A stretch of 63,053 bases of DNA, the filler included, from Stramenopiles sp. TOSAG23-6 (lineage: Eukaryota), in assembly GCA_900128565.1 (NCBI GenBank). It is 49 parts of 49 records of this genome, joined end to end, with 100 filler letters (N's around TTAATTAATTAA, not from the genome) between each part and the next. Parts side by side here need not be neighbours in the genome. Positions count along the whole stretch, not along the records: positions 7,359 to 8,431 come from LT639787.1; positions 8,532 to 9,603 come from LT639789.1; positions 9,704 to 10,775 come from LT639790.1; positions 10,876 to 11,946 come from LT639791.1; positions 12,047 to 13,117 come from LT639792.1; positions 13,218 to 14,288 come from LT639793.1; positions 14,389 to 15,458 come from LT639796.1; positions 15,559 to 16,628 come from LT639797.1; 41 more parts are not named here. One strand, written 5' to 3'. The number at the start of each line of letters is the position of its first letter. Position 1 is the stretch's first letter. Shown piece after piece: positions 7,359 to 62,377 of the stretch. The notes beneath the pieces are model-generated. The model was not told the DNA's origin and did no database searches. It worked only from the letters and a program-made list of their open reading frames with translations. A program made the translations under genes and the position numbers.

Positions 7359-7418
<60 letters not shown>

Positions 7419-7444
7419 AGTGAAATTTGAAGTAAAGAACATAC

Positions 7445-8402
7445 CGGGTGTTCCACTTGCAATCGAGTATTCATTTCAAGGAAGTAAAAGTTTTGGTCAT
7501 AATCACATAAAAATTCTACTGTACCAGCAGAAAAGTAACCCACCGATTTTGCAAGTTGAACAGCTTGTGCTTGCATTTTTTTTCGTGTTTCTTTTGTAAG
7601 CAAAACAGACGGAGATGTATTGTGAAAAAATATTTTTCAAAAAATTTTGTTAGGTACAAAATTTCGTACGAAATATAAATTCGAAATTGAAAAAAAAAAA
7701 AAACATACATTCTTCCAATACTTTTTGATTGCGTCTTTGAAGAGAACACTCCCGTTCTGGAAAAGCAGCATAATTTCCATGTTTATCACCAATTAATTGA
7801 ATTTCAATATGTCTACCATCCGTTGGGCATACAAAATGTTGTATCAGCATGCGGTCATCTCCAAATGATGAAGCAGCTTCTTCACGTGCAAGATGAAACC
7901 CTTCAACAAGCTCACTTTCATTCCAAGCGACTCGCATGCCTTTACCACCTCCTCCAGCACTAGCTTTCATTATAATGGGATATGTGTTGTGAAAAAATAT
8001 TTCAAAAAAAATCTAAAAAAAATTGTTAGGTACGAAATTTCGTACGAAAAAAAAACTTAAATTAGAAATTCATTCCAAAATACATCCATCATTCCCAAGT
8101 TTTTCACCAATCTCTTTTGTTATTTCAATCGCACGCTCAACAGTAGGACATTCTCCATCGAAACGTGGAGCACAACTTACACCTGCTTTTTCGGCAATCC
8201 TCATACTCTCAATTTTGTCACCCATGGAGAGTATACCGTGGGCATGTATTTTGGAAAAATATTCAAAAAAAAAAACTTAAATTTCTTAGGTACAAAATTT
8301 CGTACGAAAAAAAAAATCGATTTTTTGTTTAAAAAAAAAAATAAAACATACATTTGCACAGCGATGAAGAAGTGTCTTTGGTGAAGGTCTTAAAGACGGA
8401 AC
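7445..8402 (-). CDS. PCCA: Propionyl-CoA carboxylase alpha (biotin carboxylase domain), exons split by 5 element introns
   Basis: [59 protein letters not shown] after removing elements. Confidence 0.85.
7615..7708 (-). mobile_element. Introner-like element intron, GT-AT, 94 nt
   Basis: GAA GAA T|GTATGT..GTACCTAAC..CACAATACAT|CT CCG restores VLEESPS. Confidence 0.85.
7982..8083 (-). mobile_element. Introner-like element intron, GT-AT, 102 nt
   Basis: GGA T|GTATTT..CAACACAT|AT CCC restores GYPIIMKAS. Confidence 0.85.
8244..8351 (-). mobile_element. Introner-like element intron, GT-AT, 108 nt
   Basis: AAT|GTATGT..CCAAAATACAT|GCC; full family consensus. Confidence 0.75.
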
Positions 8403-8670
8403 GTGTATTGTGAAAAAATATGTTATAAAGTNNNNNNNNNNNNNNNNNNNNNNNNNNNNNNNNNNNNNNNNNNNNTTAATTAATTAANNNNNNNNNNNNN
8501 NNNNNNNNNNNNNNNNNNNNNNNNNNNNNNNTTTTTAAATTTTAAAAATTCTAATTACAAAAAAAAACAAAAAAAAAAAAAACAAAAAAAAAAATTTCAA
8601 ATTTTTTTTTTTTCAAAATTTTTTGTACCTAATCAAAATAAATGTTTTGAAATATTTTTGTACTCTATAA

Positions 8671-9367
8671 AAATGAATGCATTGACGAAACACAAAAAAA
8701 AGGTCCAAAAGTAACTTATGATTTTGATTTTTATGATGAAAGATGGTCAGTACATCGTAGTATTAGCGCAGTAGATTGGTCACCTCATTATCGCGAGTTG
8801 CTTTTAGCAGGGTATGTTTTTCATCATAATTATTTTTTAATTTTATTTTTTTTGAATTTTATTTTTTTTTTTTTTTGAATTTTTTTTTTTTTTTACCAAA
8901 ATTTATTTTTTTGTAGCTAAACAAAACAGATTTTTTTTACATATTTTTGATGTATTAGGTATAGTGCAAGAGATGATTGTGTTACATCTACTTTGGATAA
9001 GAATGGAAATCTCATTGGACGACCTTTGCTGTTTTCAACAAGCCAAAATATTCAGAAAACACGAAATCTCAGAAAAACACAAAAATTTCAAAACGATCCA
9101 GATGGTGTTGTTTTAGTTTGGTCTTTGCAACGTCCCAAAAAGCCAGAATTTGTATTTACATGTCCTTCCCCCTTAACTAGTGCAATGTTTCATAAATTTT
9201 CACCTTCCTTGGTCATTGGAGCATGTTTGTTTTATCCACTCAACTCAAATTTCATTGTTTTTTTTGTTACCCCTAACCCTAACAAAAAAAAAAAAAAAAT
9301 TGAAATATTTTCAAACAATACATGTTACTCAGGCCAAATCGTTTTATGGGATAAAAGAGCTTCACAT
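8671..9367 (+). CDS. Cytoplasmic dynein intermediate chain (WD40), partial
   Basis: SAVDWSPHYRELLLAGY, DPDGVVLVWSL, IGACYSGQIVLWDKR. Confidence 0.85.
8812..8958 (+). mobile_element. Degenerate element intron, GT-AG
   Basis: GG|GTATGT..TATTAG|G TAT restores LLAGYS; core motifs decayed. Confidence 0.7.
9225..9323 (+). mobile_element. Element intron, GT-AT, 99 nt, in-frame without stop
   Basis: GCA T|GTTTGT..CAATACAT|GT TAC restores GACYSGQIVLWD. Confidence 0.8.
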
Positions 9368-9557
9368 GTATTTTAATAATTATTCATTTCAAACATACAT
9401 TTATCATTGTAGAAATGATAAAACATGAAAAAAAAATTGAAATTGTTTTTTTTTTTTATAAAAATGTTGTACCTAACAACATTTTGAAAAAAAAAAAAAA
9501 AAAAAAAAAAAAATTAAAATTTTTTTTTTTTTTTAAAAAAATTTTTTCCCAAAAAAA

Positions 9558-9593
<36 letters not shown>

Positions 9594-9872
9594 CACAATA
9601 TAGNNNNNNNNNNNNNNNNNNNNNNNNNNNNNNNNNNNNNNNNNNNNTTAATTAATTAANNNNNNNNNNNNNNNNNNNNNNNNNNNNNNNNNNNNNNNNN
9701 NNNTATATAATAATTTCTATATAATAATTTCTATATAATAATTTCTATATAATAATTTACAATTTATAATAATTTACACATAAAATTTACACATAAAATA
9801 TTTCCCAATAAAATATTGCACAATACTAAATTAATATATACTATATACTATATGTACTTTTATATACAGATA

Positions 9873-10638
9873 TTATGGAAGAACTTGTCTAACATTTAAA
9901 TTAATCCGTTTTGCGTCGTTTCGTAAAAAATCGACAACATTTTTATCATATTTCGTGTTTAGTACCGTTGAAAAATGATTTGGTAAAGTATTTTCAAGAA
10001 TTCGTGGAACACCATGCATACACAATCGACTTTTATTCCCCATAATTATGACATCACCACTACGAATATATATAGCAATTGGTTTTTTTTCATTTTTTTT
10101 TTCAATATTTTTTTTTTCAATATTTTTTTTTTCAATATTTTTTTTTTCAATATTTTGAGACTCTCCTAATAGAAAAATTGCAGAATGACCAAAACTTATA
10201 GATACAACTGGAGCATCATATGTTTCTTCAACTTCATCAGTATGACCACCCATTTATTGTGAAACAAAATGTTGTATAGTTTTGAAAATTTGTTAGGTAC
10301 AAAATTTACTACGAAAAAAAAATTGTAAAAAAAAAAAAATTTTGTAAAAAAAAAATTCAAAATTCGAAATTCAAAATAAGTGATGATACAAAAACATACA
10401 TGAAACTTTTCCGATGATACACGTTACAAATGGCAGCTTCAGGTCGAAACGTAGGAAATCCGACTAAAGCAGACAGTTTTGTGCAAATCCAGTGAACATC
10501 TTGTGGAAAATTTTTACATCTCCATTTTTTTGGATATGTACGATGAGTCCAGTCATAATGAAAACCAAAAGTAGACCACGAAATCTTTGATAAAATAGTT
10601 TTTGCTTTCTTTTGAAATTTTGTATCACTATGAGCCAT
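9873..10638 (-). CDS. ALKBH1: AlkB-family Fe(II)/2OG dioxygenase (ALKBH1-like), partial
   Basis: WSTFGFHYDW, PEAAICNVY, MGGHTD, SISFG, SGDVIIM, HGVPRI, RINLNVRQV. Confidence 0.85.
10252..10399 (-). mobile_element. Element intron, GT-AT, 148 nt
   Basis: TTC AT|GTATGT..CACAATAAAT|G GGT restores FMGGHTD. Confidence 0.85.
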
Positions 10639-10648
10639 ATACCAAATG

Positions 10649-10716
10649 TTATTATTTTTGTTATTATTATTTTTGTTATTATTATTATTATTATTTTTGT
10701 TATTATTATTATTATT

Positions 10717-10775
<59 letters not shown>
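10649..10775 (+). repeat. (ATT)n microsatellite (poly-Asn on minus strand)
   Basis: Direct observation. Confidence 0.9.
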
Positions 10776-10875
10776 NNNNNNNNNNNNNNNNNNNNNNNNN
10801 NNNNNNNNNNNNNNNNNNNTTAATTAATTAANNNNNNNNNNNNNNNNNNNNNNNNNNNNNNNNNNNNNNNNNNNN

Positions 10876-21529: not shown

Positions 21530-22452
21530 CTACACTGAATGTTGCCACGTAACGTAATGTCTTACAGAATTTTTGTCACTCGCATGATTGGCAGCCAAAT
21601 TCAACTTGGCATATGATAATGCACGATCATCCGAGTCAACAACAAGTCTTCTATGTATTGTATCACATTCGATAATTGAATGACCATTTAAGTGTATAAT
21701 TTCTTCATATGTATGAAAACACGAAATATTAATCCCATTTTGATATCCTTGATTAAATGTATTACAACGTGAATCTAAATTACGTTTTGGGTCGTTTAAG
21801 AGCTCCATTCGCCGACGATTTGTTTCTTCAACATCTGGTGTCAATATTACTTCAGATGTTCCATCTTCACGAAATAGCGTAGATGTTGTTGCTGTGATTT
21901 CAATTCTCATGGAATTGCGAGTATACATTGTCAGTTTTCTTGTGTTTTGGGAGTTTTGATTACCCTGACTATACATCATACCTTGTTTGACAAAAGTAAA
22001 TACTTCGTGTTTCATAGTAGTAACTGTCATTTCTTCAACATGAGAAAGGTCGTCTATTGGAATATTGAGTAAATCGGGTAATAAAATATACGATTTTGCA
22101 TTACCAGTTACGAGTGGTGTTGTACTACATATAATGTGAAATTTTGTTTTTTAGAAAAAAAACTGTTAGGTACGAAATTACGTACGAAAAAAAAACTGAA
22201 TTCGAAATTGAAAAAAAATAAAACATACCTCGTTTTGTAAGAAGACCATCGTCACCAATGTCAAAATCAGCACTTCCCACGAGAACAAGTTCATGTGGAA
22301 TATGAGGCCAGGCGTGTTCTGCAACAGTCCATAATTCATTTCCATTAGCCATGAATTGTCGTAATCCATATGTCGTGATAACGAGAGCTGTTACAGATAC
22401 AATGAGAAGGGCTAAGAATAAAACACAACATTTATGAAATAATTTCTGAAAG
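21530..22452 (-). CDS. Hypothetical type II membrane protein
   Basis: Open frame after removing element 22129-22228. Confidence 0.5.
22129..22228 (-). mobile_element. Element intron, AG|GT..AT, 100 nt
   Basis: CGA G|GTATGT..CACATTATAT|GT AGT joins two ORFs; a more distant in-frame AG exists. Confidence 0.65.
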
Positions 22453-23245: not shown

Positions 23246-23568
23246 TTAAAGCAATTTTTGAATTGCTGTTACCATCTTTGAGCATTCTTTGGTATAATTC
23301 ACCTTTACACATCGAAATAATGTTGATCGGATTCGTTTAGCTCCATTGTATTCATGTATTGTGAAAAAATTCAAAAAAAATCTAAAAAAATTTGTTAGGT
23401 ACAAAATTTCGTATGAAAAAAAACCAAAAAAAAAAGTATTTTGAAATTCACAAAAACAACACACATCTTCTTTCAAACGCAGCCTCATCGTAAAATCCTT
23501 AAACAGCGCTGATTTCATTGTTGATTCATATAGATCTGCATTACTCTCCATTTGTTGTACAGTAATAT
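23246..23568 (-). CDS. RPA1: Replication protein A 70-kDa subunit C-terminus
   Basis: ALFKDFTMRLRLKED|EYNGAKRIRSTL..VNYTKEC. Confidence 0.75.
23354..23464 (-). mobile_element. Element intron, GT-AT, 111 nt, in-frame
   Basis: GAT|GTGTGT..CACAATACAT|GAA. Confidence 0.8.
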
Positions 23569-23733: not shown

Positions 23734-24712
23734 TCGCTTCTGAGTTTAGCCGAAATATGTACGTTTTCAATTTCGAATTTCGATGTTTTTTTTCATAGTA
23801 AATTTTGTACCTAACAAATTTTTTTTTGAAAATATTTTCCAATAATATATGTGTACGATCAAATTCGTTTGGTATATCAAGTGGACCTTCGAAAGTGCGA
23901 TCTTTTGGATCTTCATTATATTATTTATTATTTGTAAAATTTCCTGAAGCTTTCCAACGTCAACATTTAGTTGGGCAATTGATTACTCATTCGGGATCTG
24001 CGAATTCTGCTGAAGTAGACGCATCCTTAAGTGTTCTTTCTGTTCTTTCGGAATATCAACCAAATGATCTTTTGCCTTTTGCTGTATTCATAAAAGGTAC
24101 TTTGGATTTTATGTTGGGATTCACACTGAAACAAACCAGAATTGTTTTTATGACAATATGTTCTCTTGCTGTACATGAATGCCATACTCTTGCAGCATCA
24201 GGTGATCAGCAATCAAATGGGGGAGATAATAGCAATCAGTCTTCGTCTGTATCATCCATTAACGCAGGTAAGGAAGCATTAGATGAAGTTCGAATTTTGT
24301 TAAGAAAACTCACTTCAAACAATAATAGTAAGTATAAGCAAGCAGGTATTATTGGTACAGTTACACTTCTCGTTTGTCTAGGAAAAGAATCTGGTTCGAA
24401 TTCATCTGGGGAGGATAAGAATACTCGTGATCATTCGGAAAATTCAGAAGATGATGGTGATTCGTGTGATGAGGAAGAGGAAGAGGATTGGACACATGTA
24501 CATTTTTATCATGAATTTTAAATTTATTTATTGGTACGAAATTTTGTACCTAAACAAAAAAGATTTTTGTTTTACTATTTATCCGTTTTCATCATGAATT
24601 AAAAATTTTCTTGTCTACTCCAAATTCTATGATTTTTCGTACCTAATGAATTCCAAACTGTACACATACTTTTTCACCAACTCATTCTATTGAAATGGAA
24701 AGTTTAATAAAT
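23734..24712 (+). CDS. FANCD2: Fanconi anaemia D2 protein, partial
   Basis: RQHLVGQLITHSGS..EVDASLSVL..FAVFIKGTLDF..ILLRKLTS..YKQAGIIG. Confidence 0.85.
23759..23850 (+). mobile_element. Element intron, GT-AT, 92 nt
   Basis: ATA T|GTACGT..AATAATATAT|GT GTA restores LAEICVRS. Confidence 0.8.
24498..24667 (+). mobile_element. Double-core element intron, GT-AT, 170 nt
   Basis: CAT|GTACAT..two GTACCTAA..TACACAT|ACT. Confidence 0.6.
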
Positions 24713-35144: not shown

Positions 35145-35267
35145 TTAAAAAAAAAAATTTAGCTAATTGTGTATACTATATATACTATTTATATCTTGAC
35201 AACAAAGCGTTTGGTTACTCAGTCCGCTGCATTACCTAAATTTATTGAGTCCGTTGATTGGATTAAN
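34261..35267 (+). CDS. PH-domain phosphoinositide 3-kinase (helical domain), with 5 element introns
   Basis: LKWYKV..PKGMMKL (PH), DDWMHKIE, EKQIIWQSR, ALPKFIESVDW. Confidence 0.75.
34825..34931 (+). mobile_element. Element intron, GT-AT without flank duplication
   Basis: GAC|GTAAGT..ACAACATAT|GAT. Confidence 0.7.
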
Positions 35268-45629: not shown

Positions 45630-45866
45630 GTATGTTTTATTTTTTTTTCAAATTCAATTTTTTTTTCGTACGAAATTTTGTACCTAACAAATTTAAGTTT
45701 TTTTTTTTTGNNNNNNNNNNNNNNNNNNNNNNNNNNNNNNNNNNNNNNNNNNNNTTAATTAATTAANNNNNNNNNNNNNNNNNNNNNNNNNNNNNNNNNN
45801 NNNNNNNNNNGGTACAAAATTTCGTACGAAAAAAATAAATTCGAAATTGAAAAAAAAATAAAACAC

Positions 45867-46756
45867 TTCACGGAACTAGTTTTGCCTTCATTTTTTGTAG
45901 TTTTTCTTTTATATTCTCTTTTTTTGTCTTTTTTGCATTCCTCTTCGCTGCAATTTTTTGATCCGCAGAGAAACAATAATGAGTGCCATAAATGTTTCTT
46001 GCTTGGAGTTTGTATGGAGCTTCACCGTGTCGATGCGATAGTATAGAACCCTTTACTAGCACAAGTTCCTTCAATTGTTCTCCATCTTTATGTATTTTGG
46101 AAAAATATTTCAAAAAAAATTCGTTAGGTACAAAATTGCGTACGAAAAATAAATTCGAAATTGAAAAAAAATAAAACATACATGAATTGTATTCCATGTC
46201 CTGCATAAACCTCTACTGAAGCTTCTACGGTATTTTGAATATTTTTTCCTCATAATATTTGAATGAAACTTTTTCCATTCCTTGTCCATGTATTTTGAAA
46301 AAATATTAAAATTTTTTTTTGTTAGGTATAAAATTTCGTATGAAAAAAAAAACTTGGAATTTGAAAAAAAATAAAACATCCATGTTTGAATAATCTGGAG
46401 GTAGTCGACTCAAATCATCTAAAGTTCGATGCCAATCATAAGAAAAATCATCGGTGTTGGAAACTGTAACATGTATTTTGGAAAAATATTTCGAAAAAAA
46501 AATCGTTAGGTACAAAATTACGTATGAAAAATAAATTCAAAATTGAAAAAAAAATAAAAAATCGTTAGGTACAAAATTTCGTACGAAAATAAATTCAAAA
46601 TTGAAAAAAAAATAAAACATACATTCCATCTTAGTTTTTCTTCCTCATTGGCTAAAATAATAGGTGAAATTTCCATAAAACTATTATCATTATTATTAAA
46701 AGTCAACTCAATTTCTGTACCATTTCTCAGCATTCCAACAACAGTAAGCCAAATCC
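45867..46756 (-). CDS. HTTM/gamma-carboxylase-like protein C-terminal region, 4 exons
   Basis: WIWLTVVGMLRNGTEIEL..MDKEWKKF..LCRTWNTIH after element removal. Confidence 0.55.
46090..46181 (-). mobile_element. Element intron, GT-AT, 92 nt (near consensus)
   Basis: CAT|GTATGT..CCAAAATACAT|AAA. Confidence 0.8.
46288..46381 (-). mobile_element. Element intron with GG donor (GG-AT)
   Basis: AT|GGATGTTTT..CAAAATACAT|G. Confidence 0.65.
46471..46622 (-). mobile_element. Element intron with ~59-nt internal tandem duplication, GT-AT
   Basis: AAT|GTATGT..two cores..AATACAT|GTT. Confidence 0.8.
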
Positions 46757-46867
46757 AAGTATTGTGAAAAAATATTTCAAAAAAAAAAAACTAAAATTTG
46801 TTAGGTACAACATTTCGTACGAAAAAAAAATTCGATTTTTTTGTTTAAAAAAAAAAATAAAACATAC
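46757..46867 (-). mobile_element. Element intron ending in TT
   Basis: AT|GTATGT..CACAATACTT|GG ATT. Confidence 0.65.
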
Positions 46868-46969
46868 ATNNNNNNNNNNNNNNNNNNNNNNNNNNNNNNN
46901 NNNNNNNNNNNNNTTAATTAATTAANNNNNNNNNNNNNNNNNNNNNNNNNNNNNNNNNNNNNNNNNNNN

Positions 46970-48028
46970 CTTAATCGTCTACTTCAGGCTTATTTGTCTT
47001 CTATGTCATGGTCTCCAGCTGCTCCACCGAATTGGGGGACTTCTGCTCAAATTCCAAACAATAATCCATGGGGAGCTTCTAGCACACTAGGTAATACCAT
47101 CCCATCACTCAGGTCATGTTCACCGACTACGTCATCAGGGAAATCGAATGAAACTAATCCAGTGAATGATTCAGGGAAAGTATCGATGGAATCTTCATTT
47201 GACGGATCGTTTCTGTCAAATTTGGTGATGGACGAAACCTCTTTAGGTCGTGCACGGTCTCTTCACAATAGTTGGGGTGTGCCAGCACCAACAGCTGAAA
47301 AAACAGGACTTTACTTGACGACACCACCAGACATTAAACCTACTGACAGATCTTACGACAAATCAACGTTTAATTATCCTCCAAAATCTTCCTCGACTCA
47401 GTTTAGATACTGACGTGTGTAATGGCACTGCTAGTAGTTCTAGTATTAGTCCTTGTGCAGTGAATACAAATCCTGCACTTGGAAATGATTTAGGCAGTGG
47501 AGGTAAAAGTCGTATTTTATCTGGATATACTGGAGTAAATGATATAATATCGAGCAATACAGAGCAACAACAACAACAACAACAGCAACTAATGAGTTCA
47601 ATGCCACAGCAGCAACAGCAACAACAACTATATCCAATACAAAAGAGAATGGAGCAAACTGCACATCAACCAAGTTCGACGTCTTTCATATCATATCAAA
47701 ATCAGCAACAAAATAATAATATTTTGACGAATAATATGTGTGGTGTTGGAGTTGATCCAAAGATTAATAATAATAATATTTCACAATTACCACACCCTTC
47801 ATGTTTTCCTTCTGGAAATTCATTAAATAATCTAAATAATCTAAATAATCTAAATAATCCAAATAATCCAAATAATCTAAATAATCTAAATAATCCAAAT
47901 AATCTAAATAATCCAAATAATCCAAATAATCCAAATAATCTAAATAATCTAAATAATCTAAATAATCTAAATAATCTAAATATGTCTTTGCATATGCCAC
48001 CACACATGGCAAACCCTAATCCTAACCC
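46970..48028 (+). CDS. Low-complexity S/Q/N-rich protein; 9-nt tandem repeat 47827-47980
   Basis: AATAATC(T/C)A repeats encoding NNL/NNP. Confidence 0.55.
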
Positions 48029-49287
48029 NNNNNNNNNNNNNNNNNNNNNNNNNNNNNNNNNNNNNNNNNNNNTTAATTAATTAANNNNNNNNNNNNNNNN
48101 NNNNNNNNNNNNNNNNNNNNNNNNNNNNCAACAGGTTTGTTCCAATTAATAAAGCCAGTGATTTTTGTTTTTTGCGCTCGTGGTGTGTCTTCTTCGTCTT
48201 TTTGTTTTTCGTTTTCGCATTGCTTGCTCCAACAAAACCTAAACAAGATGGTACGTTGTCATTATCTATGAATGAATTTCAGAATGGATAAGTGTATAGT
48301 GTGTTTGTGTGTGTTATTTGATTGATTGGCTATAGAGTAATTGTTTGATTGTACAACTCTACCGTTTTTAATGGTACACATGAAACTGGTTAATTATTCT
48401 ATTTTTCAGTCATGTCAACAAACACTACAACACACAAATTGCCTTATCTTTTCTCATCGTCGGACACTACCTATACTTCTATATGTATGACTACTGCGAG
48501 TTGTTACATTTTTGTATACAGCGTTGTATAGCAGTATCTTGTATAAATAGTTATATGATGTAGTCTATAAGAAAAATACATATATATACAAGCGCGCATT
48601 CTATCCTACATTGGACTACAACGCTCTTTTGTTTACGATGTTTTGTCTACTGTATCAGTATTATACTGTATACTTACATAGAAAAATGTGTATTCAAAAT
48701 TGCATGTATGCGAATTATATAGTATTTATTATGCTTTTGGTGTTTCGNNNNNNNNNNNNNNNNNNNNNNNNNNNATATGATGAAAAAGTGTCAAGGTGGT
48801 GCAGATTTCAGAGAATATTTCTAGTCTCTGCTCCACCAAGTTTACTTTACTATTCTATATCTAGCGTGATATAGCGTTCACCACTTCATTTCTTTCTGCA
48901 GTATACTACAATCTATGTATATACTATGGGCTTTTCAGCGAGTGACTATTTCATTTCATGGAAACGTTGCGTTTTAGCTAAAAGTTTTGTCTAGAAAGAA
49001 GAATTGAAGAAACGCAAATGTAACAATATTTCTCTATTTTAGTCTTTTACACATTAGGATGAATATATTCGTTGCACTATATCTTTTATTTGAAACTATA
49101 TTCAAAGATTGATGTTTTGTACAGTGTATATCCTGTTGTTTATGAAGATTTTCAATTTTTTTATACGTGTTTTTTTGCGTCCCTTCANNNNNNNNNNNNN
49201 NNNNNNNNNNNNNNNNNNNNNNNNNNNNNNNTTAATTAATTAANNNNNNNNNNNNNNNNNNNNNNNNNNNNNNNNNNNNNNNNNNNN

Positions 49288-49739
49288 TTTGTACCTAACA
49301 ATTTTTTTAGATTTTTTTTGAAATATTTTTCCAAAATACATGTCAAATATACACAGAGGCAACTGTCTCGGATGCAAAGACAGTTCATTTATCATCATCA
49401 AACATTTACATATGTCCCTATGGAAATATTTGCGATCCAAAATTTGGTCTTAAAGGATGTATATTTTTATCATTCATTTTTTTTTTTTCAAATTAGGTAT
49501 AAAATTTTGTACGATTTTTTTTTTTTTTTTTTTTTTACAATGAAAATTGTATACCTAACAAATTTCAAATTTTTGAAATATTTTTTAACAATATAAATCC
49601 TAATCGATATGATAATTGCAAGTGTTCTAAAGCAGAGGGTGGATTTGGAAATACAGAAAAATATGACTGTTCGATAGGTTTTTATTGTTATGCAAATGGA
49701 AAATGCAGTGAATTTGTACATTTTCAAAATTGAATTGTT

Positions 49740-49786
<47 letters not shown>

Positions 49787-49846
49787 TTTTTTCCCAAAAA
49801 ATTTTTTTTTTTTTTTAAAAAAAAAAAAAAATTTTTTGGGAAAAAA

Positions 49847-49893
<47 letters not shown>

Positions 49894-50345
49894 AACAATT
49901 CAATTTTGAAAATGTACAAATTCACTGCATTTTCCATTTGCATAACAATAAAAACCTATCGAACAGTCATATTTTTCTGTATTTCCAAATCCACCCTCTG
50001 CTTTAGAACACTTGCAATTATCATATCGATTAGGATTTATATTGTTAAAAAATATTTCAAAAATTTGAAATTTGTTAGGTATACAATTTTCATTGTAAAA
50101 AAAAAAAAAAAAAAAAAATCGTACAAAATTTTATACCTAATTTGAAAAAAAAAAAATGAATGATAAAAATATACATCCTTTAAGACCAAATTTTGGATCG
50201 CAAATATTTCCATAGGGACATATGTAAATGTTTGATGATGATAAATGAACTGTCTTTGCATCCGAGACAGTTGCCTCTGTGTATATTTGACATGTATTTT
50301 GGAAAAATATTTCAAAAAAAATCTAAAAAAATTGTTAGGTACAAA
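49288..50345. repeat. Perfect whole-contig palindrome centred at ~49816/49817, containing element copies
   Basis: Arms are exact reverse complements. Confidence 0.95.
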
Positions 50346-50710
50346 NNNNNNNNNNNNNNNNNNNNNNNNNNNNNNNNNNNNNNNNNNNNTTAATTAATTA
50401 ANNNNNNNNNNNNNNNNNNNNNNNNNNNNNNNNNNNNNNNNNNNNCTTTTTCTTGAAACCATTGGAATGTTCTCATACTAGAGTAGCAAGACAAGAAGCA
50501 ATACTATAGGCTACATAACACCAACAACTTTTGTTCGTTGTGTTGAGCTGTGACTGGTTCGGACTTCGGAAGTTCGGAACCTTTGTCAACATGATACCCG
50601 GTACTAAAATTAATCGAGTCAGCTCAATGCGCAATCGCGCGCGAATTTTATTGTTTTTTTGTGTGTCGTCTTTTTTTTTGATAACAACAAACAAACGAAA
50701 CATTTCTGCC

Positions 50711-51178
50711 ATGACAGCTCATTCGAAGCAAACTATTCTTTATGCTGTTGAACGAGGTGATCTGATGTTTCTTATCCGGGAAAGGAGACGGATACCATTC
50801 GATATCTCAACCTGGGATGAGATTTGTCGGTCTGCCATGTTCTATGGCAGAGTTCATATTGTGGCTTGGCTGAACCAGGTAAAGGGAATTCAGCCTGACC
50901 TTAACCCTTACGAAAGCGGATTGGCCATGGTGAATGCTGCTGGAAATGGGCAAGTGGGAGCTTTAAAATATTTTCGGGAAACCTTAAGTCCACCTTTGCC
51001 TTGGGATGAAAGTATGTGTGCTGTAGCAGCTGCATATGGTCACTTAAATGTGTTGCAGTGGCTTTGGGAGGAAAATAAACGTCTTCCCAATGAATTTCCG
51101 TTCAAGTATGATGACAGTTACACAGCAGCACAACTTAATAATCAACGACATGTGTTGCATTGGTTGGAAAGTTTATAA
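50711..51178 (+). CDS. Ankyrin-like repeat protein
   Basis: PWDESMCAVAAAYGHLNVLQWL-type repeats. Confidence 0.75.
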   Translation: MTAHSKQTILYAVERGDLMFLIRERRRIPFDISTWDEICRSAMFYGRVHIVAWLNQVKGIQPDLNPYESGLAMVNAAGNGQVGALKYFRETLSPPLPWDESMCAVAAAYGHLNVLQWLWEENKRLPNEFPFKYDDSYTAAQLNNQRHVLHWLESL

Positions 51179-51691
51179 CTCAATTAAAAATTAATAAATT
51201 TGTTTGTTATCAAATTTTATATTTGGTTTGTCACTTATCACAATAATAGGAAAGAGCCTGTGGTGCTTGTGGAACACCCCTCTTTTTTTTTTATTTATTT
51301 TGAGTCTGAAGCCGGATTTATTCCAAATAAATAGAAAATATTTTTTGTTTTGAAGTTTAAAATGCTATAGAAAAAGAAACAATTTTTTGAAAATATTTTT
51401 GTTTTATATACAATTATTTGTGCAAAATATGATTCATATTCAATTCTAAAATTCTTTCCAAAAAAATAAAATCGAAAAATATTGTACTCGAAAATATTGT
51501 ACNNNNNNNNNNNNNNNNNNNNNNNNNNNNNNNNNNNNNNNNNNNNTTAATTAATTAANNNNNNNNNNNNNNNNNNNNNNNNNNNNNNNNNNNNNNNNNN
51601 NNATTGTTAGGTACAAAATTTCGTATGAAAAATTAAAATTTAAAAAAAAAAAAAAAAAAAATTCGAAATTGAAAAAAAAAATAAAACATAC

Positions 51692-52598
51692 ACGAAACTC
51701 TGCATGTTAAACCACCTTCAGTTGCTCCACTTAATTGACCAATAGTTGAACGCATTGTATTTCGTGTAAATCCATGACATAATCGTTGGTCTAAACAACC
51801 TTTGTTTAAATCCCAGACTAAAATTCCACCATCTTCATCAGCAGACATGTAATTTTTAAAAAAATATTTCATTTTTTTTTTTTTTAGCGTTAGGAAAACG
51901 TACATTGCTCGGCTTCCATCCGTTGAAATACAGACAGAAATTAACGGCACGTTATGCGCTGAAAAATGGAATACTGCGTCACCTGTATTTAATTGCCATA
52001 CATACACAGAAGTATCAGAACTCACGGAGCAACCACGAGAACCATCATCTGAAAGAGCATGTATTTTGGAAAAATATTTCAAAAAATTTTTTTTACCGAA
52101 AAAAAAAAAATTGTTAGGTACAAAATTTTCAAAAAAAAAAAAATGAAATTTTCAAAAAAATAAAAACATACAACACAGGTAACAGTTTTTTTATGTTTCT
52201 TCATTTGACGTATCAAAGTGCCTTCAAGTATATCCCAAAAAATTAATGTATTATCCCAACTTCCTGACAATGCAAAACGTCCATCAGGTGTGATCTCAAC
52301 TGATGCTACAGTGTCTGTATGACCTTCAAGACAATGTAATTTACGACCAGTAGCAAGATTCCATATATTTTGGAAAAATATTTGAAATTTTTTTTTCAAA
52401 AATTTGTTAGGTACAAAATTTCGTACGAAAACTAAAAAAAAAAAATTCGATTTTTTTGTTATAAAAAAAAAAAAAAAACATACATACAATGAGTCGACTA
52501 TCACTAGATGCCGTAACACCTTTAAAAATATTTGTCATTTTCATTGAAGTTTCATCGACAGTTGATAATACAGTAGGATGAACTGTATTCATTGGTAC
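51692..52598 (-). CDS. WD40 repeat protein, 5 element introns
   Basis: GHTDTVASVEITPDGRFALSGSWDNTLIFWD and neighbouring repeats. Confidence 0.9.
51847..51903 (-). mobile_element. Minimal 57-nt element intron, GT-AT
   Basis: AT|GTACGTTTTCCTAAC..AATTACAT|G restores RAMSADEDG. Confidence 0.75.
52059..52171 (-). mobile_element. Element intron, GT-AT, 113 nt (register-informative)
   Basis: GTT|GTATGT..AATACAT|GCT gives VTCVALS. Confidence 0.85.
52363..52483 (-). mobile_element. Element intron, GT-AT, 121 nt
   Basis: GTA T|GTATGT..AATATAT|GG restores RLIVWNL. Confidence 0.85.
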
Positions 52599-52798
52599 AT
52601 GTATTTTGGAAAAATATTTCAAAAATTTTCTATAAAAAAAACATTTGTTAGGTACGGAANNNNNNNNNNNNNNNNNNNNNNNNNNNNNNNNNNNNNNNNN
52701 NNNTTAATTAATTAANNNNNNNNNNNNNNNNNNNNNNNNNNNNNNNNNNNNNNNNNNNNTTTTTTTTTTTTTTTTTTTTTTTTTTCATTATTTTTTTC

Positions 52799-52850
<52 letters not shown>

Positions 52851-52879
52851 AAATTTGAAATTCATAATGAAACACGTAC

Positions 52880-53698
52880 GTAGTTATCACGTAGAGATTG
52901 ATGTGATTCATTTAAAAGTAATCCCAATTCTTTTAATTGTGTTTCAAAAATTGGTTTTGAACAAATTTGTATAAATTGTTCAACACGTTCAACTTCAGAG
53001 TAGACATATATCGTAGTATAATATTTTTTTCAGAAAAAAAAAATGTTAGGTACAAATTTTGGTACAAAAAAAAAATTAAATTTTTAAATTTAAAAAAAAA
53101 AAAAAAAAAAAAATGGTTAGGTACAAATTTTCGTACGAAAAAAATAAATTCAAATCTTTAAAAAAAAAAAAAAAAACATACATGAATTGCCCTTTCTAAG
53201 CATTTAATATCACATTTCGATGCATCTTTAGCCATGGTATTAATAACATTAGTTGCTAAATCTTCACGATTTGGAAACAAAACAGCAGACGTATCTCCGG
53301 ACAGATTTGTTCCAAATCCCAAAGATTTTGCAATGATTGAAGATGAAAAAAATTCTTTTGTAATTGCATTTAAATTCTGTTTTGCAATTTTTTGCATTCC
53401 ACCTGTTAAAACTTTTTTTCCAGTTCTTTTTTCTAAATTAGTTTGAATATGTTTTAAATTTGTACATTTTGCATTAAATTTTAATTGTTTTTGTAATAAG
53501 GCTGAAGCCAAACCACCCTCAACAACACGCCTATTGAAACAGGTTTGTGCCGTATCTGCTTTTTGAGCTTTTTTTCCTGAATGTAAAACAACAAATGAAG
53601 CATTTTTTGGTAATTCAATATTTTTTGTTACTAATTTTGGTTCAAATGTAACATGTAATGCATTCCCTTTTTTTGATAGGCACGAAACTGCTTGATCC
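52880..53698 (-). CDS. GALK2: N-acetylgalactosamine kinase/galactokinase, partial
   Basis: MDQAVS, FNRRVVE, RAIHVYSEVERV, LGLLLNESHQSLRDNY. Confidence 0.85.
53006..53181 (-). mobile_element. Double-core element intron, GT-AT, 176 nt
   Basis: CAT|GTATGT..GATATAT|GTC restores RAIHVYSE. Confidence 0.8.
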
Positions 53699-53765
53699 AT
53701 GTATTTTGAAAAAATATTTCAAAAAAAAAATTTTAAAATTTTTGTTAGGTACAAAATTTCGTATG

Positions 53766-53816
<51 letters not shown>

Positions 53817-53996
53817 NNNNNNNNNNNNNNNNNNNNNNNNNNNNNNNNNNNNNNNNNNNNTTAATTAATTAANNNNNNNNNNNNNNNNNNNNNNNNNNNN
53901 NNNNNNNNNNNNNNNNAAAAATATTTCAAAAAAAAATCGTTAGGTACAAAATTTCGTACGAAAAAAAATTGGAATTAAAAAAAAAATAAAACATAC

Positions 53997-54918
53997 ATGC
54001 ATCAAGGCACTGATACAAATCTAATCGCTGAGGTTCCCCATTGTTCGTATTTTTGAAATTAGACTTAGGAAGTGGTATGTCCACAGACATAAATGGATCA
54101 AATGATACAGAGTTAAGACCACAAAGAGTACATTGAATACGTGAACGAAGTTGACCTTGGAAAACAGAAGTAAAATGACTTTTGTGTCGTTTTTCATGAA
54201 TACTTAAAGTTTCAGCAGCAATCTGAGCATCGGATCGACCAATTGTTTCAACAGACTTTATAATAGACTTATTTTGTGCGATATTACAATCCTCATGCAT
54301 AACATCTAGTAATAAATGCATAAGTTCAGATGCATCCTGTTGCTGGTAACCAATAAATAAGGAATTCTGTTGGCTTACCAACGTCTTGAGAGCCATCGGA
54401 ACACAAATAGTGTATTTACCTGACCACATCGCCTTCATCAAACGTCCATACGCTTCTGCCATACTCAAATTCGATTTGGATTTTGTTGAACGACAAGTAG
54501 AATTATTACTCTTTGTGAGTACATCTTTTGGATTTGGTTTATTTGGTTTATCAGTTAAAACTTCTTCAAATTTTCCATCAAGAAAGAATTTTGTCAATGG
54601 TTCACAATTACTAAGACACTGTATCATCGAATTTAAAAAACATGTATTTCCTAAATTTCTCAACCCAACAACACCAGCCGCTGGAGGTCGACCCACAATG
54701 TGTTCAAAATTAAGAGGCATATTCTTCGCCGAAGACACAGCAGCAACTATTCTACTGATTGCCGAAGTTGTTGTATAAGAATGTATATCATTAACAGCAC
54801 TACCCGCTGAAGAATGCTTCGTATACGTTCCATATTTTTGAAGACATTCACTTTCATTACTGTACCATTCACCTGCACCGAATTCTTTATTTTCCCAATG
54901 AAGCTTTACCCGGAGTTC
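53997..54918 (-). CDS. Ubiquitin-specific protease exon bounded by two elements
   Basis: GLRNLGNTCFLNSMIQCL, QQQDASE. Confidence 0.9.
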
Positions 54919-56239
54919 ATGTATTTTGGAAAAATATTTCAAAAAAAAAAACTAAAATTTGTTAGGTACAAANNNNNNNNNNNNNNNNNNNNNNNNNNNN
55001 NNNNNNNNNNNNNNNNTTAATTAATTAANNNNNNNNNNNNNNNNNNNNNNNNNNNNNNNNNNNNNNNNNNNNCAGTTCGCTGTTGTTGCGGCATTCGGGA
55101 GCTATTCGGTTCACGAAAGCCTTGTCTCTGCTCTTCGGCAGGATCGTTTCGAAACTCATCATTCATACTATGTATTATGTACTATTTTGACAAAAATGCC
55201 AAACGAAAAAAAAATGGGAAAAAGCACGCGCTCTTGGTTTTCAACAGTTTTCAGGTTTGTGTTAGTTGGGCGGTTGGCTTGGTGTGGTCGGGGAAGAGGT
55301 GCTTGGGAGCAAGGGCATATGTTATTGTTGATATTGATGTAATTTGTTGGCCACCTGGTAACATAACGATGCTTACATGTGGAAGTAAAGTTGGTGTTGC
55401 CAGGGTGGGCCTCGCATAAATATGCATTCAAAACGAACGCACAAACATACACGTCTCCGTTTAAGGAAATTTTATATACCACGACGTTAACAGCTTTCCG
55501 TGTGAACAGTAGCACTCCAAGGAGCGCAAGCACGGATCACTTGACATAAGCCATGGATACAAGAGAAAAGGGGACACGGGGGAGGAAGACGGAAGGGCGC
55601 GGAGTGGTGTTTTACTTACTGCTCAGTCAATCACGGACGGACGGACGGACGGATGGACGCACGCACACACAAAAATGAAGTGACCTGACCTGAACCAAAC
55701 TAATCTAAAAAAAACTGTACGAACTTCAAGACGAAACAAGTATCTAGATACATTTAAGAATAAAAGAAAGGAAAGAAAACAACCCAAAAAATAAACGTTT
55801 TTAATTTCATTAATCTCTCCCCTTCCATCGTCTTAAAGGATTCTTTTGACTCTGTGAACATTCCAATTTCCAAATAATATTCTTCCACCACCCACCCACC
55901 AAAAAAGAAGAAAAAAAAACAATAATAATAATAATAAAAACAAAGTTGTTTTTTTACAATCTCCATCATTAGTTAAGGTAATGAATATAAATGAATTGAT
56001 ACGAATGTCTGTATTATAATAGTAATGAATGTATCTTTGTATCTGTAATATTTATATTATTTTCCGTGTGATAATACATATAATGTTCAAAGTATTAATT
56101 TCAAACAACATGAATCATTGACAGTATNNNNNNNNNNNNNNNNNNNNNNNNNNNNNNNNNNNNNNNNNNNNTTAATTAATTAANNNNNNNNNNNNNNNNN
56201 NNNNNNNNNNNNNNNNNNNNNNNNNNNATAAAAATGTAC

Positions 56240-59591: not shown

Positions 59592-60062
59592 NNNNNNNNN
59601 NNNNNNNNNNNNNNNNNNNNNNNNNNNNNNNNNNNTTAATTAATTAANNNNNNNNNNNNNNNNNNNNNNNNNNNNNNNNNNNNNNNNNNNNTTTGCTGCG
59701 TTTTTGATTAATTTGATATTTTTTGCTTTTACTTTTTCTTCTTGATCACCATCGTTATAAACAATATCATACGTATTATCAGGGTAAACCTTGACAATTT
59801 TGCCAGGAAAAGAGTATGATGATGTAAGAAGTCGAGAAGACGGTGGTTATCTCACTTCATGCACGTACGAAAATGAAGAAATTCGAAATGTATAACGAAA
59901 TCATACATTTTCATTTATGTTGAAGAGAGTGTTATTTCATTGATTCTGTATAAAATAAAAAAAATGAGATACTATGTAGAAATTCTTTATCAATTAAATA
60001 AATAATTCATTGTAAAATATGAATTTCAACACTATAACTTGACTTATTGCATAATATATGTA

Positions 60063-60719
60063 TTATAGTTTGTTAACAGGCGTGAGACCTAGGAGTCGCA
60101 TCGCAGTTCGCATAGCTTCACACGTCGCTTGGCACAATAATACTCGACTGAAATCAATTTCGTCTTCATTAATAACACGACAACTTTTCCAAAAAGAGGA
60201 AAAATTCTGACATAAAGTGAACATATACTGACAAAGTAAGTGAGGTTGTAATTGCTCCATGGATTCCTCTAAAACTTCCGGAAGGCGTAAAATTTCAGAT
60301 ACTAAATTAATCTCAGCAACTTCTTTTACGGTAACTGAATATGCTTCTTTAATTTCGTCCATAGTTTTGTTACATTTTGATGTCACATTTCTACCAACGG
60401 ATGCTATACGAGCATGCTGATATTGCATATAGACATTTGTATCGCCGTCAGTGGAGAGCATGCGTTCAAAGCTAAAAACATAATCGTTAATTCGATTTTG
60501 GCGAAGATCAAAATATTTCACACCACCATAACCAACAGCTTCAGCAGTATCCGAAATTTCATCCGCAGCAAGTGGCGACTTACCATCCGATACTCTTTGA
60601 GTAAGTATACCAGTCATTCGAGATCGAGATTCATCCAAAAGATCGACTAAGCGAACACTTTTACCTTCACGAGTTTTAAATTTTTTACCATCATCTCCTT
60701 GAACGACACCAAATTTTAC
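60063..60719 (-). CDS. RARS1: Arginyl-tRNA synthetase C-terminus; last exon preceded by an element AT acceptor
   Basis: VKFGVVQGDDGKKFKTREG, VKYFDL, GDTNVYMQYQHARI. Confidence 0.92.
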   Translation of the reverse strand, partial: VKFGVVQGDDGKKFKTREGKSVRLVDLLDESRSRMTGILTQRVSDGKSPLAADEISDTAEAVGYGGVKYFDLRQNRINDYVFSFERMLSTDGDTNVYMQYQHARIASVGRNVTSKCNKTMDEIKEAYSVTVKEVAEINLVSEILRLPEVLEESMEQLQPHLLCQYMFTLCQNFSSFWKSCRVINEDEIDFSRVLLCQATCEAMRTAMRLLGLTPVNKL

Positions 60720-60898
60720 ATATATTGTGAAAAAATATTTTTGTTNNNNNNNNNNNNNNNNNNNNNNNNNNNNNNNNNNNNNNNNNNNNTTAATTAATTA
60801 ANNNNNNNNNNNNNNNNNNNNNNNNNNNNNNNNNNNNNNNNNNNNATTTTGTACCTAACAATTTTTTTTTTTTTTTGAAATATTTTTCCAAAATACAT

Positions 60899-61750
60899 GT
60901 GTTCATCCTACAGTGTCTAATCTTGAAGGATCTCAACAAAATTGTTCATGTAAAACTCGTTTGTTATATAACCCTAAACCTAACGCTATATATATATTTC
61001 TAACCCTAACCCTAATTCAATTTTTTTTTTTTTCAAAATATTTTTTTTTCATAGTAAAAATTTGTACTTAGACTGTTTTTTTTAATTACATATTGTCCAG
61101 AACATAGTAGTAAAGGATAAAAATTGTAAATTTAAAAATGGTGTTGATTCGTATGTATTAAAAGAGGAATTTCGCAAAGTAAAAAATAGTCTACATACGA
61201 ATTCTCAAAATTTTCCAAAAAAAAAAAATTTCCAAAAAAATCAAAAAAATCAAAAAAATCAAAAAAATCAAAATATGAATAGTTTTTCTAATTTTTTAGA
61301 TATGACGTCAGAAATCTTGGATATTGAAGAATTGGCTAACCAAGGCAAAGAACACGAAATATGTCCTTATTTTTTAATGAGGCAAGCATCCATTCAAAAT
61401 GAAGCTGATCTAATTTTTGTACCTTATAATTATCTCATCGATCCAGATGTTAGAGAATTGACATGTACGTGTTATCAAACCCTAACCCTAATTTCAAATT
61501 TATTTTTTTAGAAAAAAATTTCGATTTTTTTTCTAAAATTTTTTTTTTTTTTTGGAATTTTTTTTTTTTTTTTTTTTCTAGACCTAAATTCTCAAAAAGT
61601 CTAAAACTTTGATATATCGTGACGTCATACAGTTCAGAATCTTGATTTATCAAATTGTATAATTCTATTTGATGAAGCTCACAACTTAGAATCCGTTTGT
61701 ACTGATGCTGCATCATTTGACCTTACACCGACAGATCTTGCTCTTAGTAT
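60899..61750 (+). CDS. RTEL1: XPD-family helicase RTEL1-like; degenerate GT-AG introns 60959-61107 and 61465-61632
   Basis: [38 protein letters not shown]. Confidence 0.75.
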
Positions 61751-61825
61751 GTACGTTTTTTTGTACCTAAACAAAAAAAAACAAAAAAAAAAAAAAAAAA
61801 AATTTAATTTTAATTTTAATTTTCA

Positions 61826-61861
<36 letters not shown>

Positions 61862-62377
61862 TTTTTTCCTTAAAAAAAAAAATTTTTTTTTAAAATTTTN
61901 NNNNNNNNNNNNNNNNNNNNNNNNNNNNNNNNNNNNNNNNNNNTTAATTAATTAANNNNNNNNNNNNNNNNNNNNNNNNNNNNNNNNNNNNNNNNNNNNT
62001 ATTAATACATGAAGTGGAGCTTTTGATGTCATTGTTTCAGAGAGAGAGTAAAAAAATATACATAGATAGAGAGATTAATAAAATTTCGAAATTAAAAAAA
62101 TAGCAAAATTGACGGTCCGTTTTTTGTTTGATTGACTAAAAAAAATGAGTTCTTGTTGTTGACTGCTGCATGAGAAAACAGCGAGAAAACAACCTCAAAA
62201 TTAATATTTTTAATTAAATTTACTTCTATTACGTCTATTACTTGCTACAATATAAACTCAAGTAAGGAGCAAACTGTGTGCAATAGAATTAATTAGTGGT
62301 GAGCTGCTTTATTATAATTTTTTGCCGTCATATATAGCCAGGACACGTGACAATGATTTTCGTTCAACTTACTATTA

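Follow-up and report, generated by a model that had tools for sequence, protein, structure and literature searches.

Introns that end in something other than AG have been described on a large scale in the animal Fritillaria. There, 34% of the introns in F. borealis and 44% in F. pellucida end in AT, canonical introns make up 5%, and the main classes begin with AG (AG/AC and AG/AT) (PMC13326754). The last three intron bases are almost always the triplet YAY, which is also frequent directly upstream of the 5′ site. The introns retain a U-rich tract, and their processing is attributed to the major spliceosome; in F. borealis, U2AF1 and U2AF2 are duplicated and diverged (PMC13326754). A second relevant group is formed by introners, which are intron-generating elements present in many copies. 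A study on Amoebophrya describes many introner families with no dominant termini, in which direct repeats (3-5 nt) overlap the exon/intron boundaries and the two ends carry inverted repeats (8-20 nt) (PMC7789003). In this study, we analyzed a 63,053-nt stretch of DNA (the window) from the assembly of Stramenopiles sp. TOSAG23-6 (GCA_900128565.1), in which copies of one intron-sized repeat family interrupt conserved genes. We give an even chance to the view that this family is a MITE (miniature inverted-repeat transposable element)-like introner with a yeast-like donor and branch site, for which a target-site duplication serves as a non-AG acceptor.

The family shares features with each of these systems. 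As in Fritillaria, CAT (20) and TAT (4) account for most of the last three bases at 32 anchored 3′ ends, and CAT, TAT or AAT usually precedes a copy. Unlike the Fritillaria introns, the copies have GT at 33 of 38 5′ ends and AG at none, a yeast-like branch motif is kept, nearly all cases come from one sequence family, and the host is a protist and not an animal. Removal of the Fritillaria introns is proven by RNA, whereas removal of the copies in the window is predicted from DNA sequence. Boundary repeats, non-canonical termini and a MITE-like build with no transposase inside are in common with the Amoebophrya introners. The differences are a shorter repeat of 2 nt (perhaps 3 nt), a terminal complementarity of ~6-9 bp, a single family, a dominant GT...AT pattern and conserved donor and branch motifs. 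Canonical introners, found in Micromonas, Aureococcus and others, are likewise DNA-transposon-like elements that occur as near-identical copies with a sense bias in genes, the element supplying one splice site and the target the other; however, those families end in AG (PMC12130899).

The copies also resemble AT-AC introns, both U12- and U2-type, in that a non-AG 3′ end is tolerated, and an AT...AC reading fits most of them. U12-type introns have a /RTATCCTT donor (a slash marks a cut throughout) and a TCCTTAAC branch site located 10-26 nt from the 3′ end. A U12-type (minor) intron was considered and rejected: there is no /ATATCCTT donor, the donor being GTATGTTTT, and the branch motif is too distant, 34-57 nt from the 3′ end. 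Euglenid non-conventional introns have no conserved borders and no U1-complementary 5′ end, and their ends form stable pairing. This class was also rejected, as the donor hexamer is conserved, RNAalifold predicts 0 pairs and the folds of single copies are weak.

The reading of the sequence alone from which this work started (hereafter the sequence-only reading) was not aware of a GT-AT-dominated system. This part of it has to be withdrawn, since routine use of a 3′ AT is already known from the Fritillaria major spliceosome, and repeat-bounded non-canonical introners from Amoebophrya. What would be new here is a non-AG-acceptor introner in a new lineage, with canonical donor and branch signals. 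Our literature search found no description of a GT-AT introner family, although supplementary tables of introner surveys may list related ones, and no account of such introns in marine stramenopiles or the uncultured marine stramenopile (MAST) groups, nor of GT-AT introns in protists. The intron and splicing passages of MAST single-cell genome papers and of a related 2026 preprint do not mention such introns. A 2025 survey of introners kept families with mainly unfamiliar splice sites only with transcript alignment support (PMC12130899), and therefore a GT-AT family in an unannotated single-cell assembly would not have been catalogued.

A repeat family inside conserved coding sequence

The sequence-only reading had described a single repeat family on many unrelated contigs, inserted in the sense direction in coding sequence, ending mostly in AT, with a first downstream AG that is unusable at four named positions, and carrying GTATGT and CTAAC where a donor and a branch site belong. 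All of these observations were reproduced. The window contains 54 contigs, mostly ~1.05 kb, joined by runs of N and a 12-nt spacer; since it is a concatenation of ~1 kb contigs, the term ‘unrelated contigs’ is correct. A 25-nt core of the family occurs 33 times at ≤3 mismatches and not once in 100 shuffles. An iterated nhmmer profile (E≤0.01) yielded 51 matches, spread over 25 of the 54 contigs; the same profile matched nothing in any of 5 shuffles. Copy counts must be de-duplicated, as the contigs at 37689-38749, 38850-39910 and 40011-41071, each 1061 nt long, are 100% identical. Four of the 51 matches sit in exact duplicate or palindromic contigs and two pairs of matches are single composite introns; the number of distinct copies is ~45 after de-duplication, plus several degenerate ones that were missed by the profile and read by eye. 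The family consists of many near-identical, intron-sized copies at unrelated loci, as is expected of introners.

The usual copy is ~92-121 nt long, within an overall range of 57-176 nt, and typically reads AT/GTATGTTTTATTTTTTTTCAAATTCGAA...TTTCGTACGAAATTTTGTACCTAAC...T-run...GAAATATTTTTCCAAAATACAT/G. GTATGT is the commonest 5′ hexamer. The most conserved part, a palindromic core, contains the branch-site-like TACCTAAC, with CTAAC 34-57 nt from the 3′ end and T-runs after it. The conserved 3′ arm ends with ...ATAC. Compared with U2-type introns, the family has the GT donor with a U1-complementary hexamer (33 of 38 5′ ends have GT) and the branch motif upstream of a pyrimidine tract, whereas a terminal AG is present in only 3 of 25 complete copies and at 5 of 41 3′ ends.

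The copies are strongly oriented. One strand carries all matches on 23 of the 25 contigs; of the two exceptional contigs, one is palindromic and the other has two weak matches only. Eleven of these 23 contigs carry two to six copies each, always on the same strand. Twenty-five copies are complete, with both flanking exons within the window and ends that could be tested by coordinates, and every one of them is sense to a through-running reading frame. A crude comparison of the open reading frames in the flanks of all 51 matches, which is a weak test, found the sense frame longer in 37 and the antisense frame longer in 6, with 8 ties.

When a complete copy is removed, from its first aligned base through its last, a single frame is open across the junction in 25 out of 25 cases, and in the contig at 34206-35266 five exons chain into a single open frame. 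The clearest case is the PCCA fragment, with three copies on the minus strand. The copy at 7615-7708 (94 nt, AT/GTATGT...ATACAT/C) gives the product ...NQKVLEE/SPSVLL..., identical to the junction in relatives. The copy at 7982-8083 (102 nt, AT/GTATTT...ACACAT/A) gives the junction of the EukProt gene model P0001 and of intronless relatives; an AG inside this copy, 31 nt before its end, must be skipped. For the copy at 8244-8351 (108 nt, AT/GTATGT...ATACAT/G), the P0001 counterpart is GPN/AHAILSMGDK. Two PCCA junctions reproduce P0001 exactly, at 96% identity in that exon, and the same residues surround both junctions in three further proteins (P0003-P0005), which look like intronless transcripts of 677-744 aa on 2.1-2.7 kb contigs.

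Conserved motifs are rebuilt at other junctions as well. In an AlkB-like gene, removal of the copy at 10252-10399 (minus strand, 148 nt, AT/GTATGT...ATAAAT/G) gives ...YHRKSF/MGGHTDEVEE, with the motif GGHTDE. A WD40 gene on the minus strand contains three copies: a short derivative at 51847-51903 (57 nt, AT/GTACGT...TTACAT/G; ...STDGSRA/MSADEDGGILVWDL), a copy at 52059-52171 (113 nt, TT/GTATGT...ATACAT/G) that restores VTCV/ALSDDG, and a copy at 52363-52483 (121 nt, AT/GTATGT...ATATAT/G; ...SRLIV/WNLATGRKL) that restores IV/WNL. The composite copy of a galactokinase-like gene at 53006-53181 (minus strand, 176 nt, CAT/GTATGT...ATATAT/G) gives ...LERAIH/VYSEVERVEQF, with the motif AIH/VYSEVERV. 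In a histidine-phosphatase-like gene, WYS/GHD is rebuilt by removal of the copy at 33670-33789 (minus strand, 120 nt, AGT/GTAATT...GTACGT/G; ...IFWYS/GHDITIMPLL). In the dynein intermediate chain gene, IGA/CYSGQIVLWD is rebuilt by removal of the copy at 9225-9323 (plus strand, 99 nt, AT/GTTTGT...ATACAT/G; ...SLVIGA/CYSGQIVLWDKR), which the profile missed at E≤0.01. Judged from these reading frames and homologies, the genes would stay open only with exact removal of each copy.

A nearby AG cannot act as the acceptor in most copies. At the four positions named by the sequence-only reading, the first downstream AG leads to a stop at the junction (7615, AG at +24), a frame shift with loss of the GGHTDE that holds the HxD motif (10252, +20), or a frame shift (52059, +10; 53006, +13). 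The same holds for other copies. The composite at 46471-46622 (minus strand, 152 nt, 5′ half duplicated, AT/GTATGT...ATACAT/G; open 56/54 codons on the two sides of the junction) has an AG 7 nt downstream that brings a stop after 14 codons, and the copy at 46090-46181 (minus strand, 92 nt, CAT/GTATGT...ATACAT/A; open 76/73 codons) would lose its frame if the next AG (+4) were used. By eye, an AG 5 nt upstream of the end of 33670-33789 would remove 115 nt and shift the frame. The copy at 34825-34931 (plus strand, 107 nt, AC/GTAAGT...ACATAT/G; ...AAAQYETD/DHDVKIAQ, both exons fully open) contains an internal T-run and a TAG ending at 34906, and use of that AG would lead to a stop after 8 codons, also by eye.

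Terminal bases and the position of the cuts

In the mechanism that we propose, a non-autonomous MITE-like element would have invaded many genes of a marine protist with an AT-rich genome, where it would act as an intron, or ‘introner’. Each copy would bring its own GTATGT donor, branch-site-like motif, T-rich tract and conserved 3′ arm. Insertion would duplicate a 2-nt target, usually AT, giving AT/GTATGT...ATAC-AT/. In the pre-mRNA, the intron would then begin with the G of GTATGT and end with the 3′ copy of the duplicated dinucleotide. Removal of the element together with one repeat copy would restore the original exon exactly, and therefore new insertions would be viable at once. The acceptor would be whatever the duplication supplies, AT in most cases and GT once, with internal AGs passed over, and a change of the last T to G would turn a copy into an ordinary GT-AG intron. 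We infer that removal occurs in RNA, by the major spliceosome, and in the register GT-AT and not AT-AC. A transposon origin is suggested by the flank repeat, the terminal complementarity, the single-copy folds that pair the two ends, the abundance of the family in seawater and the many contigs that break off inside a copy, as expected for a high-copy repeat.

The last two bases of the 25 complete copies are AT in 21, AG in 3 and GT in 1, and the first two are GT in 22, AT in 2 and GG in 1. When all distinct ends were read by eye, the 41 3′ ends comprised AT (32), AG (5), TT (2), GT (1) and AC (1), and the 38 5′ ends comprised GT (33), AT (2), GC (1), GG (1) and one that is ambiguous; the 5′ flanking dinucleotide was AT in 27 of the latter and another in 11. 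An automatic tally placed AT at 27 of 32 3′ anchors, a few low-scoring anchors being spurious. In 18 of the 25 complete copies the flanking dinucleotide is the same as the last two bases, AT in 17 and GT in one (33670-33789). This boundary repeat looks like a 2-nt target-site duplication, and a G often follows the copy (21 of 32 anchors), which would extend the direct repeat to 3 nt.

Since the flank repeats the last two bases, cuts that give GT-AT, TG-CA or AT-AC introns yield the same mRNA, and the register has to be judged from variants and from the copies in which the flank differs. GT is kept at more 5′ ends (33 of 38) than the preceding AT (27 of 38). GTATGT is the exact yeast donor consensus, which is matched in the GT-AT register only. 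The members of the family that end in AG (...ACAG, ...ATAG and ...TTAG) carry it at the aligned position of the AT, as a T-to-G change, and the GT-AG introns in the same genes (8812-8958, 34405-34546 and 35076-35162) are diverged family members. For the PCCA copy at 7615-7708, shifting the cut by +1 would place C where all relatives have S or A, which excludes register +1. For the WD40 copy at 52059-52171, whose flank TT makes it informative, registers 0, -1 and +1 give ...TVTCV/ALSDDG, whereas register -2 gives D for V; the gene’s own neighboring repeats carry V at this position, which disfavors register -2. The copy at 22129-22228 (minus strand, 100 nt, AG/GTATGT...TTATAT/G) is informative through its 5′ flank AG. 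Its AT end leaves 66/67 codons open, whereas with the AG located 4 nt downstream the frame would run into a stop after 7 codons; in alignments with distant homologues the junction shows no gap. Registers -1 and -2 would give C instead of G at a position where three distant homologues have D, D and S, which weakly disfavors both. Another informative copy, at 37954-38054 (plus strand, 101 nt, TT/GTTTGT...ATACAT/G; open 80/80 codons), gives V in register 0 and D in register -2; identical copies are found at 39115-39215 and 40276-40376 in the duplicate contigs. Among the registers, GT...AT alone fits the copies at 7615-7708, 52059-52171 and 22129-22228. The proposal of GT-AT introns by the sequence-only reading is thus favored by the informative copies and the AG variants, and weakened by the equivalence of registers in 18 of 25 copies. 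On this evidence, the chance that the register is GT-AT stands at about one half.

Seawater libraries provided a further view of the family. A run search with 45811-54972 of the window returned 5 RNA runs among a total of 11, the shares ranging from 0.05 to 0.47; the best DNA matches were small runs from 2015 of a single organism. On the contig at 51603-52659, the seawater pieces match the repeat alone: 3377 in one DNA run, and 770, 561 and 37 in three RNA runs from two further studies. As nothing outside the repeat is covered, the low shares of the RNA runs in the search probably reflect repeat words. Joints between the placed pieces link different repeat copies and are uninformative on splicing. 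In one RNA-library contig (X10; loose end at 52159), exon-like sequence is followed by the 5′ start of a copy at another locus, which fits transcription of the element. Taken over the three studies, seawater DNA is rich in the family, and RNA libraries contain it as well.

A number of observations weigh against the proposed mechanism. Exon depth on the contig at 51603-52659 is zero in RNA and DNA alike, and no spliced transcript was seen there; nor was a same-species transcript found in protein collections or metagenome contigs. The presence of the element in RNA libraries could be explained by retention or by carry-over of DNA. The equivalent cuts mean that ‘GT-AT’ is not directly readable from most copies, and the copies beginning with A (ATAAGT at 33570 and ATAGGT at 34662) suit an A...C pairing in register -2 better, with a third exceptional copy beginning with GG (GGATGT at 46381). 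In 5 of 18 copies AGs are located 10-13 nt past the branch motif and would need to be skipped, as would the T-run and TAG at 34906. A scanning spliceosome is not expected to pass over such AGs. The last two bases are conserved about as well as the rest of the element, with no sign of special selection. RNAalifold found 0 pairs in a consensus structure of the family, and compensatory change is absent in the 9 pairs tested. Finally, the assembly is fragmentary and contains chimeras, and one exon adjacent to a copy misfits its gene.

Two alternatives keep removal in RNA and place the cuts differently. If both cuts lay two bases upstream, the same introner would be excised as AT-GTATGT...ATAC, an AT-AC intron of the major spliceosome like the known U2-type ones. 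AT precedes and ...ACAT ends 17 of the 25 complete copies, for which the mRNA would be the same, AT-AC is an accepted terminal pair in which the first A matches the last C, and the ATAAGT and ATAGGT copies, each after CAT, fit an A...C intron. However, the termini required are less conserved at both ends, with AT in 27 of 38 against GT in 33 of 38 on the 5′ side, and AC in ~28 of 41 against AT or AG in 37 of 41 on the 3′ side by hand tallies. Four copies would turn into TT-AC, TT-AC, AG-AT and AC-AT introns, the WD40 junction would read D where the gene’s own repeats have V, and the T-to-G variants that make AG would become exon changes. /ATGTAT is moreover a poor donor match, while GTATGT two bases on is a perfect one. 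We consider this reading unlikely. It is also conceivable that removal is blind to the terminal dinucleotides and guided by pairing of the two ends, as proposed for euglenid non-conventional introns and the Amoebophrya introners. The termini are complementary over 6 bp (ATGTAT with ATACAT, 83% of cells paired), including the flanking AT, with an additional, weaker complementarity of 3 bp, and minimum free energy folds of single copies bring the two ends together in 5 out of 5 cases (-11 to -16 kcal/mol, z -0.5 to -2.5). Internal AGs are ignored, and the last two bases track the flank instead of a fixed signal, as in the GT/GT copy at 33670-33789. That lone copy suggests that position and not sequence sets the cut, and in combination with the skipped AGs it makes a structure-guided or otherwise unusual second step possible. 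On the other hand, GTATGT and CTAAC are kept, the folds are weak, consensus pairs and compensatory changes are absent as given above, variants that break the pairing (37954 and 52171) are still found in open genes, and the family has canonical GT-AG relatives. Removal of this kind seems to us improbable, more so than AT-AC cuts.

The remaining alternatives dispense with splicing, and both are unlikely. The copies might never be removed, the genes being pseudogenes or assembly artefacts joined via the repeat. The triplicate and palindromic contigs, the 51-nt exon before 8351 that misfits PCCA and the element sequence in RNA libraries would be in line with this. It is opposed by the frame kept on exact removal in 25 of 25 complete copies, by flanking exons that are consecutive pieces of the same conserved proteins, with a PCCA exon 96% identical to that of a relative, and by the sense-only orientation on 11 multi-copy contigs, which points to selection on transcripts. 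We regard such an origin as very improbable. The copies might otherwise be cut from the DNA of a somatic genome. Ciliate internal eliminated sequences are TA-bounded and removed from somatic DNA, and short AT-rich elements with a 2-nt direct repeat in coding sequence do resemble those of Paramecium. Here, however, the boundary repeat is AT and not TA, the copies carry donor and branch motifs, and the element-bearing form is the one assembled from DNA, with 3377 pieces attesting to its abundance in a separate DNA run from seawater. The standard-code frames of up to 697 aa and the PCCA neighbors do not suggest a ciliate. Excision from DNA is the reading to which we give the least credence, scarcely any.

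Further copies, the contigs and the host

Most of the other complete copies follow the GT...AT pattern. They are located at 23354-23464 (minus strand, 111 nt, AT/GTGTGT...ATACAT/G; open 41/35 codons), 23759-23850 (plus strand, 92 nt, AT/GTACGT...ATATAT/G; open 8/80 codons, the former up to the contig edge), 28411-28504 (plus strand, 94 nt, AT/GTTTGT...ATATAT/G; open 6/75 codons, again with a contig edge) and 41988-42083 (plus strand, 96 nt, AT/GTACAT...ATACAT/G; open 80/49 codons). In the copy at 46288-46381 (minus strand, 94 nt, CAT/GGATGT...ATACAT/G; open 51/59 codons) GG replaces GT. Two copies begin with A: the one at 33470-33570 in the histidine-phosphatase-like gene (minus strand, 101 nt, CAT/ATAAGT...ATACAT/T; open 33/51 codons) and the one at 34662-34762 (plus strand, 101 nt, CAT/ATAGGT...ATGCAT/T; ...PSQNA/LLERDDWMHKIEEA), which has a 10-nt direct repeat at both ends and an aligned start without GT. 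Canonical ends are found at 34405-34546 (plus strand, 142 nt, AT/GTACGT...ATTTAG/G; open 48/38 codons, whole exons open), at 35076-35162 (plus strand, 87 nt, AC/GTATTT...ATTTAG/C; open 48/34 codons) and in the diverged intron of the dynein intermediate chain gene at 8812-8958 (plus strand, GG/GTATGT...TATTAG/G; frame open 53/67 codons).

Two variations in the build of the element were observed. A subfamily has a different 5′ arm (...TTTTCATCATGAATTT...) that replaces the usual T-run and CAAATTCGAA, while the core and the 3′ arm are unchanged; its 5′ ends are at 14435, 24508, 28411, 31937 and 33570. In the composites at 46471-46622 and 53006-53181, part of the element is duplicated in tandem, with two CTAAC motifs per intron.

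Several contigs carry marks of the assembly process. Of the two contigs at 49288-50345 and 29557-30619, one is identical to its own reverse complement over its whole length, a perfect palindrome, and the other has 357-nt inverted duplicated ends flanking a 296-nt self-complementary center. Both look like amplification chimeras of a single-cell library, and the exact triplicate and the palindromic contigs fit an amplified single-cell assembly. In the PCCA fragment, a 51-nt exon within 8352-8431 (minus strand), between a partial copy (...ATACAC end) and the copy at 8244-8351, misfits PCCA. Relatives read ...GIEFIGPN there, and the expected pieces are present in two other frames; the exon is either a frameshifted stretch or a chimeric join via the repeat.

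Other parts of the window have features of their own. The GC content of the contigs is 22-43%, with a single exception of 57.5%. That contig, at 26065-27128, contains a 387-aa open frame with RRM-like sequence and is probably from another organism in the sample. The first four contigs (1-7258) are up to 3777 nt long and have unbroken lysine-rich frames of up to 697 aa; no family match by profile was found in them. Long Asn- or Gln-rich low-complexity tracts occur within open frames at 10357-10827 and 47319-48080. An Rfam scan of the 63-kb window gave 0 matches, hence no snRNA was found.

Database searches returned relatives of the interrupted genes. With the PCCA exon, the best match among longer proteins was 96% identical (the EukProt gene model) and the next 90%, and the best among proteins of similar length was 84%. 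The WD40 exon matched only generic WD40 proteins in the protein collections, mostly bacterial, with no orthologue. The element was present in 0 of 80 related PCCA loci from a metagenome scan, the best of which was 86% identical. In one genomic relative (L002) PCCA is uninterrupted, yet it is only 53% identical overall. A viral collection gave 0 matches to the element. Prokaryote genomes gave one exact match to a 20-nt part of the core, at 6187-6206 of a contig (L081) from a Bacteroidales metagenome-assembled genome; we calculate that a search volume of this size should contain about one such match by chance.

The standard-code open frames, which reach 697 aa, indicate a eukaryote with ordinary codon usage. 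The sequence-only reading had looked to phylogeny for a placement of the host, and this succeeded in part. The PCCA fragment is closest to P0001 (96% in one exon), and in the PCCA tree the window is sister to this model with a support of 98, at 85% identity over 212 columns. The next neighbors are marine transcripts and the EukProt row INCI705, with named oomycetes and labyrinthulids further away. The tree covers a single gene, with bacteria and eukaryotes mixed, and the placement is not firm. Based on these neighbors, the host is a probable heterotrophic marine stramenopile of the uncultured ‘MAST’ kind.

Significance for splicing and gene annotation

The wider picture suggested by our analysis is that of a free-living marine protist, probably a stramenopile, in which the introner itself, instead of an AG, would tell the major spliceosome where to make the 3′ cut in hundreds to thousands of introns. 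AU, and now and then GU or UU, would be accepted and internal AGs skipped, while the GUAUGU donor and the UACCUAAC branch site would be kept. This would be an independent protist counterpart of Fritillaria, and no earlier case would be known of a non-AG acceptor provided directly by the target-site duplication of a transposon. Our confidence in this picture as a whole is tentative, falling a little short of an even chance. The interest of the finding is high and depends on RNA proof of removal.

If RNA confirms the proposal, 3′ splice-site choice would be freed from the AG rule in a system where the donor and branch signals are canonical. As a natural experiment, such a system would be cleaner than those of Fritillaria, with changes at both ends, and Amoebophrya, which has no dominant pattern. 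It would also show how an introner can be viable on landing in an exon: the donor and branch site would be brought along, and the duplicated target would become the acceptor. Given its abundance in the DNA and RNA libraries that three studies made from seawater, the repeat is usable as a field marker for material of this organism. Gene predictors that allow only GT-AG introns would break most genes of such organisms. As introns of this kind are unmentioned in the MAST papers, published proteomes of related uncultured marine protists may be affected.

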